From assembly GCA_944389475.1 (NCBI GenBank), contig CALXMM010000005.1, forward strand, positions 735 through 64,734: a stretch of DNA of 64,000 nucleotides. Direction: 5' to 3'. The stretch is from an uncultured Clostridia bacterium (lineage in GTDB: Bacteria; Bacillota; Clostridia; TANB77; CAG-508). Of this stretch, positions 62,685-64,000 are shown piece after piece. How positions within the stretch are numbered: position 1 is the stretch's first letter; every line of letters starts with the position of its first letter. The translations under genes and the position numbers were made by a program. The notes beneath the pieces are model-generated. The model did no database searches and was not told where the DNA came from. It was given only the letters and a program-made list of their open reading frames with translations.

Positions 62685-62714
62685 TTGACAAATCATATTA
62701 AACAGAGATATACT
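62685..62714 (+). promoter_or_regulatory. Promoter candidate of the RiPP locus
   Basis: TTGACA (62685-62690), an 18-nt spacer, then TATACT (62709-62714). Confidence 0.5.
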
Positions 62715-62803
62715 ATTTTTATTACAATATTAATTATATTAGTAAACATAGAAAAAGAATATAAATATGATTTTGAAAATTTTATAAAAGGAGGATGATA
62801 ACT

Positions 62804-63010
62804 ATGACAAAAATGATGCAGACTAATTATTGGAATCCTAGTGTGAATTATATTGTAAAAAATGCTGCTCAAGATTATATGATATCAGAAAAAGCTAGAT
62901 TGATTTCAAATGCAGCAAAAGCAACAGCAGGTGATTGCTCTTGTAATTGTTCTAGTGCTTACTCAGCATGTAGTAGTACTTGCGGTTCTTGTTCATCTTG
63001 TAGTACCTAG
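62804..63010 (+). CDS. Cys/Ser-rich ribosomal peptide precursor (68 aa)
   Basis: GGAGG RBS 9 nt before the ATG at 62804. The leader is MTKMMQTNYWNP..AAKATAGD and the core is CSCNCSSAYSACSSTCGSCSSCST (7 Cys, 10 Ser in 24 aa). A radical SAM/SPASM gene lies 160 nt downstream. Confidence 0.7.
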   Translation: MTKMMQTNYWNPSVNYIVKNAAQDYMISEKARLISNAAKATAGDCSCNCSSAYSACSSTCGSCSSCST

Positions 63011-63169
63011 GTTTATTGCTAAAGGATAAAATTTAGAATAGGATGTAGTTGGAAATTTTAATATGATGTATTATTTTGCATCTACCAAAAGAGTATTTTG
63101 TTGAAAGAAAATATTATAAGGCAATGTATCATTTTAGAAATATCTATCGTAATAAAAGGAGACATAGTA

Positions 63170-64000
63170 ATGATAAAAAAATCAAAATTTAGTATGCAGT
63201 GGCATATCACGGATAAATGTGACCAAAGGTGTAAGCATTGTTACATATATGAAGGAAAAGATAAGAAATGTAGTTTGGAACTTGATTTATATACATTGAA
63301 GAAAATATTAGAAGACTTTATTCAAAGTTGTGATAGATTAAATAAAGAACCTTTTGTGGTTATTACAGGTGGAGATCCGTTGCTTTATGACAAAATATGG
63401 GAATTCTTGAAAATGCTTAATGAACATAAAATTCATTTTGGAATTTTAGGTAATCCATTTCATTTGAATTACGAAGTAGTAAAAAAGTTAGAAGAATTAG
63501 GTTGTATTAATTTTCAAATGTCATTGGATGGGTTAAGAGAAACTCATGACTATATTCGTAAACCAGGTTCTTTCGATGCCACGTTAGATGCATTAAAATA
63601 TTTTAAGGGAAGCAGTATTAATACAGCTATTATGGCAACAGTTTCAAAAACAAATATTAAGGAAATTCCTGAACTAGTGGATATTGTTGTACAATATGGA
63701 GTTGATAATTTTGGATTTGCAAGATACTGCCCTAATCCAGGTGATTTTGATTTAATGGTTACACCAGAAGAATATAGAGATTTTTTGAATAAAATGTGGA
63801 ACAAATATATGCAATATCAAGATTGTAATACTCGATTTGCCTTGAAAGATCATCTCTGGAAACTTTTTTTATATGAGAAAGGATTATTTAATCCATATGA
63901 AATTAACAATCCAAATGATCTTATTCTTGATGGATGCCATTGTGGAATTGCACATATAACAACTTTGGCAGATGGAACTGTTTATGCTTGTAGAAGAAGC
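63170..64000 (+). CDS. Radical SAM/SPASM-type peptide maturase candidate, 3' end beyond the window
   Basis: This ORF is not in the ORF track because it has no stop: it is open from the ATG at 63170 (AAGGAG RBS) to nt 64000. It has CDQRCKHC (CxxxCxxC) and GGDPLL motifs, and a SPASM-like motif begins at DGCHCG..ACRR at the window edge. Confidence 0.85.
   Translation, partial: MIKKSKFSMQWHITDKCDQRCKHCYIYEGKDKKCSLELDLYTLKKILEDFIQSCDRLNKEPFVVITGGDPLLYDKIWEFLKMLNEHKIHFGILGNPFHLNYEVVKKLEELGCINFQMSLDGLRETHDYIRKPGSFDATLDALKYFKGSSINTAIMATVSKTNIKEIPELVDIVVQYGVDNFGFARYCPNPGDFDLMVTPEEYRDFLNKMWNKYMQYQDCNTRFALKDHLWKLFLYEKGLFNPYEINNPNDLILDGCHCGIAHITTLADGTVYACRRS

Follow-up and report, generated by a model that had tools for sequence, protein, structure and literature searches.

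A probable ACGX-family radical SAM/SPASM maturase and its leader-type Cys/Ser-rich peptide in an uncultured Clostridia bacterium

The ACGX system, defined in silico by the models TIGR04340 (a radical S-adenosylmethionine (SAM)/SPASM maturase) and TIGR04341 (its Cys-rich peptide), is the closest described counterpart of a gene pair at the end of the stretch of DNA analyzed here (the window; 64 kb, 26% GC, contig CALXMM010000005.1 of an uncultured Clostridia bacterium). The window's maturase is a member of the same family, scoring 456 bits against a curated cutoff of 400, and the layout is likewise the same: a Cys-rich peptide gene lies about 100–160 nt upstream of a radical SAM/SPASM enzyme of about 340 residues that has no RRE (the recognition element of ribosomally made peptides with post-translational modifications, RiPPs), with no exporter or protease gene. 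The difference lies in the peptide. Classic ACGX peptides are built of tandem modules, whereas the window peptide has a conserved 44-residue leader (N-Y-W ... A-Q) followed by one non-repetitive Cys/Ser tail. We consider it highly probable that the window encodes an ACGX-family maturase together with its substrate peptide, as a RiPP-type system. Its novelty lies in the peptide branch; the enzyme family is already catalogued in silico, and the pair does not constitute a new class.

Other described systems resemble the window pair less closely. Among characterized enzymes, the best-scoring model is that of the thio(seleno)oxazole maturase SbtM (TIGR04082; Lewis et al., 2021, cited in PMC11626156 and PMC11002830), whose chemistry on its substrate likewise centers on Cys; the window maturase, however, falls below the SbtM cutoff and lacks the N-terminal ~195 residues, and the window precursor has no selenocysteine codon. 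SkfB, PapB and CteB/SCIFF share with the window pair the radical SAM and SPASM fold and a Cys-rich precursor, but score only 57–75 bits against cutoffs of 300–340, and the window locus has no RRE, no precursor match and no protease or exporter. The CXXX-repeat system (TIGR04117/TIGR04118) and CefB (NF038107) embody the same concept, a Cys-repeat peptide beside a radical SAM/SPASM enzyme, but the window pair is below their cutoffs. By the criteria of these hidden Markov models (HMMs), the pair is outside the SCIFF, sactipeptide, ranthipeptide, SbtM, CefB and CXXX-repeat families.

The window breaks off within the maturase gene. A look-up of the exact precursor sequence returned 12 metagenome contigs, including L001, which is 100% identical to window positions 52804–64000 across 11,197 bp and runs 8.6 kb further; coordinates past 64000 are extended coordinates taken from L001. 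The complete maturase, from the ATG at 63170 (L001:10367–11401), has 344 residues, and both PF04055 and PF13186 (SPASM) match it. Against TIGR04340 (“radical SAM/SPASM domain protein, ACGX system”) the full-length protein scores 456.2 bits over profile positions 2–341 of 341, and the fragment inside the window alone scores 359.4 bits (positions 2–273). Because the full-length score exceeds the cutoff, we place the maturase in this catalogued family, and the public-database homologues P0070 and P0089 already bear its name. The second-best model, TIGR04082 (SbtM), scores 190.2 bits (E = 6e-56, cutoff 350) over profile positions 196–515, which span the whole radical SAM and SPASM portion. Lower scores were obtained with models for the heme/tetrapyrrole enzymes AhbD (127 bits, cutoff 500) and NirJ2/NirJ (99–102 bits, cutoffs 500–515), and for PapB (NF047865, ranthipeptide; 74.7 bits, cutoff 340), anSME (TIGR03942; 68.8 bits, cutoff 349), CefB (59.8 bits, cutoff 600) and SkfB (TIGR04403, sactipeptide-type; 56.9 bits, cutoff 300). 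The SCIFF maturase model was not among the best 25 NCBIfam models for the full-length protein.

The fold was modeled on a 79%-identical homologue with AlphaFold2 (mean predicted local distance difference test score 91). The best Protein Data Bank (PDB) matches in a fold search were the peptide-modifying SPASM enzymes SuiB, anSME, ChlB, SkfB and PqqE, with template modeling (TM) scores of 0.65–0.76 at 15–19% identity, and a PDB sequence search gave distant matches, headed by SkfB, across the radical SAM core alone. The modeled fold confirms the SPASM peptide-maturase class but does not assign a chemistry. No N-terminal RRE domain is present: the radical SAM motif starts at residue 17, and the model opens directly on the initial barrel strand.

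Pairing of enzyme and peptide is conserved well beyond the window. When one genome per species was scanned, relatives of the enzyme turned up at 449 places, in gut Clostridia, Lachnospiraceae, Alistipes, Prevotellaceae, Patescibacteria, methanogens and Micrarchaeota, and 80 loci were fetched. Among the 79 loci with enough flanking sequence, an automatic filter found a Cys-rich open reading frame (ORF) directly upstream of the enzyme in 65, and manual inspection recovered most of the remainder, so that at least 70 of the 79 have a Cys-rich small ORF beside the enzyme. The recovered loci include classic repeats (L072, L074 and L081), an ORF placed downstream (L059) and precursors with three Cys (L023 and L031). 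This co-occurrence spans Clostridia, Bacteroidota, Patescibacteria and archaea.

The peptides come in two styles. The classic style accompanies enzymes 50–54% identical to that of the window, in Lachnospiraceae, Alistipes, Prevotellaceae and methanogens; here a short variable N-terminus is followed by 2–6 tandem modules such as EEKPSACGSACGAGDK, and such peptides score 59.4, 48.2 and 27.8 bits against TIGR04341 (cutoff 28). The leader style accompanies enzymes 60–86% identical to the window's, in metagenome-assembled genomes (MAGs) of gut Clostridia, and, as a separate group at about 50–56% identity, enzymes of Patescibacteria and of one Micrarchaeota MAG. Its leader carries the motif N-Y/F-W ... 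S/T-A/V-Q-x-x-L/M, in which W10 and Q23 do not vary across 18 peptides from Clostridia, Patescibacteria and one archaeon, and its single Cys-rich tails include DCSCNCSSGCSACSSSCGSCTSCSTSCS, DCSCNCYGGCSGGSCSSCSYGNS, ECESGCNNSCGTACASGCTDF, SCGAGSCNCGGGCNGSCSTSCEGGS and GGCGGGCIGGCGGGCL. In a neighbor-joining tree of 77 enzyme sequences, those with classic peptides form one clade and those with leader-type peptides are the remaining enzymes. Leader-style peptides, that of the window included, match neither TIGR04341 (run on the window's and six others) nor any other NCBIfam or Pfam model. Against TIGR04117 and TIGR04118, the leader-type relatives gave noise-level precursor matches (E = 0.02–0.2) and the window peptide gave none. 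A leader-type precursor profile searched against a collection of 5.8 billion proteins retrieved 53 clusters, all unnamed. The leader-type branch is large and unannotated, with a precursor outside the curated ACGX definition.

Variants of the leader-type precursor were also observed. The precursors at L023:3742–3942 and L031:2075–2224 have three core Cys (e.g. GVCECGCSDY); as some cores hold so few, the minimal substrate of the enzyme family may be very short. At L018:2624–2827 a normal leader is joined to a different, Trp-containing core, DYRSCISWGGCDCSTVTGTLSSCSSWGECD, and a second radical-SAM-like ORF (C-ENA-C-TF-C; L018:1375–2358) lies just upstream of it.

The window precursor, MTKMMQTNYWNPSVNYIVKNAAQDYMISEKARLISNAAKATAGD-CSCNCSSAYSACSSTCGSCSSCST, is encoded from the ATG at 62804 to the stop codon at 63008–63010. 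Its Cys density was dropped as a statistical argument, since eight other stop-free 24-residue stretches with at least six Cys occur off-frame in the window; because such density is not beyond chance at 26% GC, the case for a genuine precursor is a comparative one. The gene sits in an otherwise ORF-free spacer with its own ribosome-binding site (RBS) and promoter-like site. Relative to its closest relatives (L007–L016 and L020), about 16–25 synonymous and about 21–24 non-synonymous codon differences were counted over the 68 codons. As non-synonymous sites are about three times as numerous, these counts indicate purifying selection on the precursor. No meaningful match was found in NCBIfam and Pfam; a CUB-domain match at E = 0.009 was dismissed as noise. 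The core units A-C-S-S, T-C-G-S and S-C-S-S each occur once, and there is no repeat module of the tandem A-C-G-x kind that defines TIGR04341. Whereas the closest relatives carry the core DCSCNCSSGCSACSSSCGSCTSCSTSCS with nine Cys, the window core has Tyr in place of Cys at core position 9 (62960–62968; SSGCSAC to SSAYSAC) and ends three residues earlier (63005–63010), leaving seven. Since this seven-Cys variant is identical on the 12 metagenome contigs, we regard it as an allele that is stable, which excludes an error of sequencing.

The features of the locus inside the window are as follows:

62685–62714, + strand: promoter-like site upstream of the precursor gene, TTGACA-18 nt-TATACT, agreeing with 11 of 12 consensus positions
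62790–62794, + strand: RBS of the precursor gene, GGAGG, 9 nt before the ATG at 62804 (read from the sequence)
62804–62935, + strand: leader region of the precursor, residues 1–44, with the motifs N-Y-W (8–10) and A-A-Q (21–23)
62936–63010, + strand: precursor core CSCNCSSAYSACSSTCGSCSSCST, 24 residues with 7 Cys and 10 Ser, and stop codon; presumed maturase substrate
63011–63169, + strand: spacer between precursor and maturase genes, with no significant RNA structure (z = −0.33)
63158–63162, + strand: RBS of the maturase gene, AGGAG
63170–64000, + strand: radical SAM/SPASM maturase, TIGR04340 (ACGX system); residues 1–277 of 344 lie inside the window
63218–63241, + strand: CxxxCxxC motif, C17-D-Q-R-C21-K-H-C24, for the SAM-binding [4Fe-4S] cluster; invariant in 77 homologues
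63935–64000, + strand: start of the SPASM region, C256-H-C258-x10-G269-x4-C274; Cys invariant or nearly so in the 77 homologues

Beyond the window the SPASM region continues with C310-x2-C313-x5-C319-x2-C322 and then C340. The maturase gene ends at 64204, and an intrinsic terminator comes directly after it at about 64212–64245, a 13-bp GC-containing hairpin and then UUUUAUU (−16.3 kcal/mol; z = −5.7 against shuffled sequences). Neither an attenuator nor a terminator-like site was detected in the spacer (63011–63169) by site scanning and folding. Because the terminator lies directly 3′ of the maturase gene and the spacer is unstructured and terminator-free, the unit comprises promoter, precursor, maturase and terminator, and the two genes are transcribed as one unit, a self-contained two-gene operon. 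DNA homology with related cassettes is limited to 62666–64205, with its 5′ edge at about 62666–62777, and as it stops at these limits, precursor and maturase behave as one cassette.

A previous interpretation of the window, made from the letters alone (the sequence-only reading), had described much of this anatomy. Translation confirms its 68-residue precursor, with a 44-residue leader ending in AAKATAGD and a 24-residue core of seven Cys and ten Ser, and the CDQRCKHC motif (C17/C21/C24) and the start of a SPASM region (C256–C274) are present as described, in a gene that runs off the window edge. The maturase gene was correctly positioned downstream, although the spacing from the precursor stop codon is 159 nt and not 160. 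The reading had also faulted the mechanical ORF list for starting the precursor too early and omitting the maturase. The first objection is reasonable, as the listed peptide begins at an ATG (62795) that overlaps the RBS, and a listed “ORF” that starts from a TTG at 62685 has the −35 hexamer of the promoter-like site as its start; the maturase is indeed missing from the list, but merely because its gene runs off the end. The view that the core is unlike SCIFF and the characterized sactipeptides agrees with the lack of any matching NCBIfam or Pfam precursor model. The proposed check with HMMs for radical SAM-associated peptide systems came out differently for the two genes, the maturase passing TIGR04340 and the precursor giving no match to TIGR04341.

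In the mechanism that we propose, the maturase, having no RRE, would itself recognize the conserved N-Y/F-W ... S/T-A/V-Q-x-x-L/M leader. SAM would be reductively cleaved at the C17/C21/C24 cluster, the resulting 5′-deoxyadenosyl radical would act repeatedly on Cys in the Cys/Ser-rich core at the C-terminus, and two SPASM auxiliary clusters would handle the electrons. Modification would fall on the Cys and their neighboring backbone instead of on specific side-chain partners, because across the family cores Cys flanked by small residues is the sole constant feature, with G, S, A, N, T, D, E or P between the Cys in any order. Some family cores, e.g. GGCGGGCIGGCGGGCL, are essentially Gly and Cys and for that reason offer no side-chain acceptors.

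For the chemistry itself we tentatively favor, at well below even confidence, a Cys-centered four-electron oxidation to heterocycles of the 5-thiooxazole type, by analogy with SbtM, since SbtM is the closest characterized relative and takes four hydrogens off Cys. PMC11002830 describes the removal by SbtM of four hydrogens from Cys to give thiooxazole, and PMC12668002 describes 5-thiooxazoles as readily S-alkylated. Thiooxazoles in bufferins chelate copper. In 34 of 81 loci a gene for a TehB/TPMT-like SAM-dependent methyltransferase of 130–200 residues is present, usually directly 3′ of the maturase gene (e.g. L007:5138–5527, L012:5129–5545, L040:5066–5656 and L048:5825–6427); all of these loci are leader-type except L045, in which no precursor ORF was identified. 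The methyltransferase has the look of a third member of the system, and a thiooxazole would supply its substrate, given the ease with which 5-thiooxazoles are S-alkylated. The absence of exporter and protease genes also fits this reading. A sulfur-rich peptide with metal or redox activity would result, which probably acts inside the cell or leaves it without a dedicated exporter. A bolder proposal, which we hold to be unlikely as a whole, is that in the leader-type branch the enzyme converts several Cys to thiooxazole-like or new sulfur heterocycles, which the methyltransferase S-methylates in most relatives, and that the peptide is not a bacteriocin or of the thioether type but an intracellular metal-binding or redox cofactor of strict anaerobes, from gut Clostridia to Patescibacteria and archaea.

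Several points weigh against the proposed SbtM-like maturation of the peptide by the ACGX-family enzyme. The SbtM score of 190 is well under the cutoff of 350 for that model, and the ~195-residue N-terminal region of SbtM has no counterpart in the window maturase. Sequence proximity is a poor predictor of chemistry among SPASM enzymes. TIGR04340 carries the NCBI model type “hypothetical equivalog”, and literature searches yielded no paper or experiment on any TIGR04340 or ACGX-system member; a paper on RiPP mining in Bacteroidales proved to have no bearing on it. The precursor fails TIGR04341, with no match at E ≤ 10; we infer the boundary between leader and core, and that the leader is what the enzyme binds, from conservation and alignment alone; and no homologue of the methyltransferase is present in the 64-kb window or the next 8.6 kb.

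The sequence-only reading had assigned the pair to the thioether class, in which Cys sulfur is linked to the α-carbon (sactionine) or the β/γ-carbon (ranthionine) of a nearby Ser, Thr, Asn, Ala or Gly, giving a compact polycyclic peptide that might be an antimicrobial or a signal. Such cross-linking is possible, if doubtful, here. The majority of characterized Cys-rich radical SAM/SPASM RiPPs are thioether peptides, SkfB heads both the PDB sequence search and the fold search, and the window core abounds in the candidate acceptors Ser, Thr and Asn. However, the assignment finds no specific support in the models, for PapB reaches just 74.7 of 340 bits and SkfB 56.9 of 300, the SCIFF maturase is outside the best 25, neither SCIFF nor any other precursor model matches, and the best characterized relative is SbtM, at 190 bits; the CxxxCxxC motif, moreover, begins at residue 17, leaving no N-terminal RRE, a domain common though not universal among such maturases, and cores made up of Gly and Cys leave the Gly α-carbon as the sole acceptor. 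The transporter, protease and immunity genes that extension of the contig had been expected to reveal are also missing, the terminator following the maturase gene directly: no leader protease, ATP-binding cassette exporter or immunity gene lies upstream in the window or in the 8.6 kb downstream, and exporter or protease families are not conserved across the 81 loci, whose neighboring ORFs were compared by all-against-all clustering and Pfam scans. Because export and protease genes are absent, the locus speaks weakly against a classical bacteriocin and weakly for an intracellular role.

We judge it unlikely that the enzyme performs a different radical chemistry on Cys or Ser, such as formation of formylglycine-type aldehydes (as by anSME) or a new modification, to yield a cofactor or stress-protective peptide. 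The anSME structures are among the best matches to the model (TM 0.71–0.75), but TIGR03942 scores just 68.8 bits against its cutoff of 349 and the core has no C/S-x-P/A-x-R sulfatase motif. The system occurs in Patescibacteria and Micrarchaeota, with their small genomes, and in methanogens, and the classic ACGX clade (L046–L081) adjoins redox and stress genes, namely nitroreductase (21 loci), a divergent HxlR regulator (16), SIR2-like (16) and PNPOx/ferredoxin (9), which hints at a role in redox or electrophile stress; no such redox neighbors are found in the window's lineage. Lastly, the small ORF might not be a substrate at all, and the enzyme might act on a small molecule, for example a tetrapyrrole like AhbD and NirJ, whose models give 99–127 bits; chance Cys-dense stretches do occur in off-frames of the AT-rich window. 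We regard this as very improbable. The AhbD and NirJ scores are far under cutoffs of 500–515, at least 70 of 79 loci, from several phyla and archaea, have a Cys-rich ORF some 100 nt upstream of the enzyme, the leader motif is conserved, the peptide appears to be under purifying selection, and peptide and enzyme travel as one cassette. The sequence-only proposal of a RiPP-type precursor with a dedicated radical SAM/SPASM maturase is upheld by this co-occurrence and by the match to peptide-modifying SPASM folds. As grounds for doubt it had named a non-peptide family and a lack of co-occurrence; TIGR04340 is peptide-associated, and its homologues co-occur with the small ORF.

The immediate surroundings of the window cassette resemble those of neither style of relative: nitroreductase, HxlR and SIR2-like genes accompany the classic clade, leader-type loci usually have the TehB-like methyltransferase, and the window has neither. 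Downstream of the terminator, L001 carries a 192-residue P-loop ORF, a metallo-β-lactamase-fold gene on the opposite strand, dapF and a gene for a Mur ligase. The P-loop ORF (L001:11840–12418, about 64643–65221 in extended coordinates), with the sequence GCQRSGKTT, a weak AAA_14 match and no NCBIfam match, starts 440 nt past the maturase gene. A homologue lies beside the maturase gene in L023 (5091–5672) in the opposite orientation, and this protein is the sole neighbor common to the lineages of the window and L023. It was rejected as a third component, because a strong terminator separates it from the cassette and it is oppositely oriented in L023. Upstream, tRNA-Val(TAC), tRNA-Asp(GTC) and tRNA-Phe(GAA) genes occupy 62158–62463, about 200 nt before the cassette promoter, and are themselves preceded by genes for HU and a MurJ-like flippase.

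Recombinase or relaxase genes border the cassette in several close relatives: it has a tyrosine integrase on one side and a Mob_Pre relaxase on the other in L007 (244–1479 and 5743–6870) and L012, and lies between or beside serine recombinases in L008 (563–1585 and 6094–7722) and L029 (1–1283 and 1644–2921). From these flanks, the cassette is often cargo of small integrative mobilizable elements, and the tRNA cluster of the window may mark an old integration site, although no integrase was seen at it. Further upstream in the window, among housekeeping genes, a 313-residue protein with a weak Replic_Relax match (56322–57263, + strand) adjoins a 776-residue homologue of TraG/VirD4-like coupling proteins (T4SS-DNA_transf and TraG-D_C; 57352–59682, − strand). 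The latter has a homologue directly beside the maturase gene in L036 (5122–7413, minus strand), and could be either a mobile-element remnant or a conserved chromosomal gene.

About half of the sampled family has a precursor type that is unannotated, and the conserved leader is a possible handle for genome mining. The window holds a minimal two-gene version of the system, without methyltransferase, exporter or protease, and as such is a clean point of entry for reconstitution in a heterologous host. The nearest characterized relative makes thiooxazoles, not thioethers, and, if the product is indeed a metal-binding or redox-active peptide, thiooxazole chemistry made by radical SAM enzymes would extend to abundant gut anaerobes.

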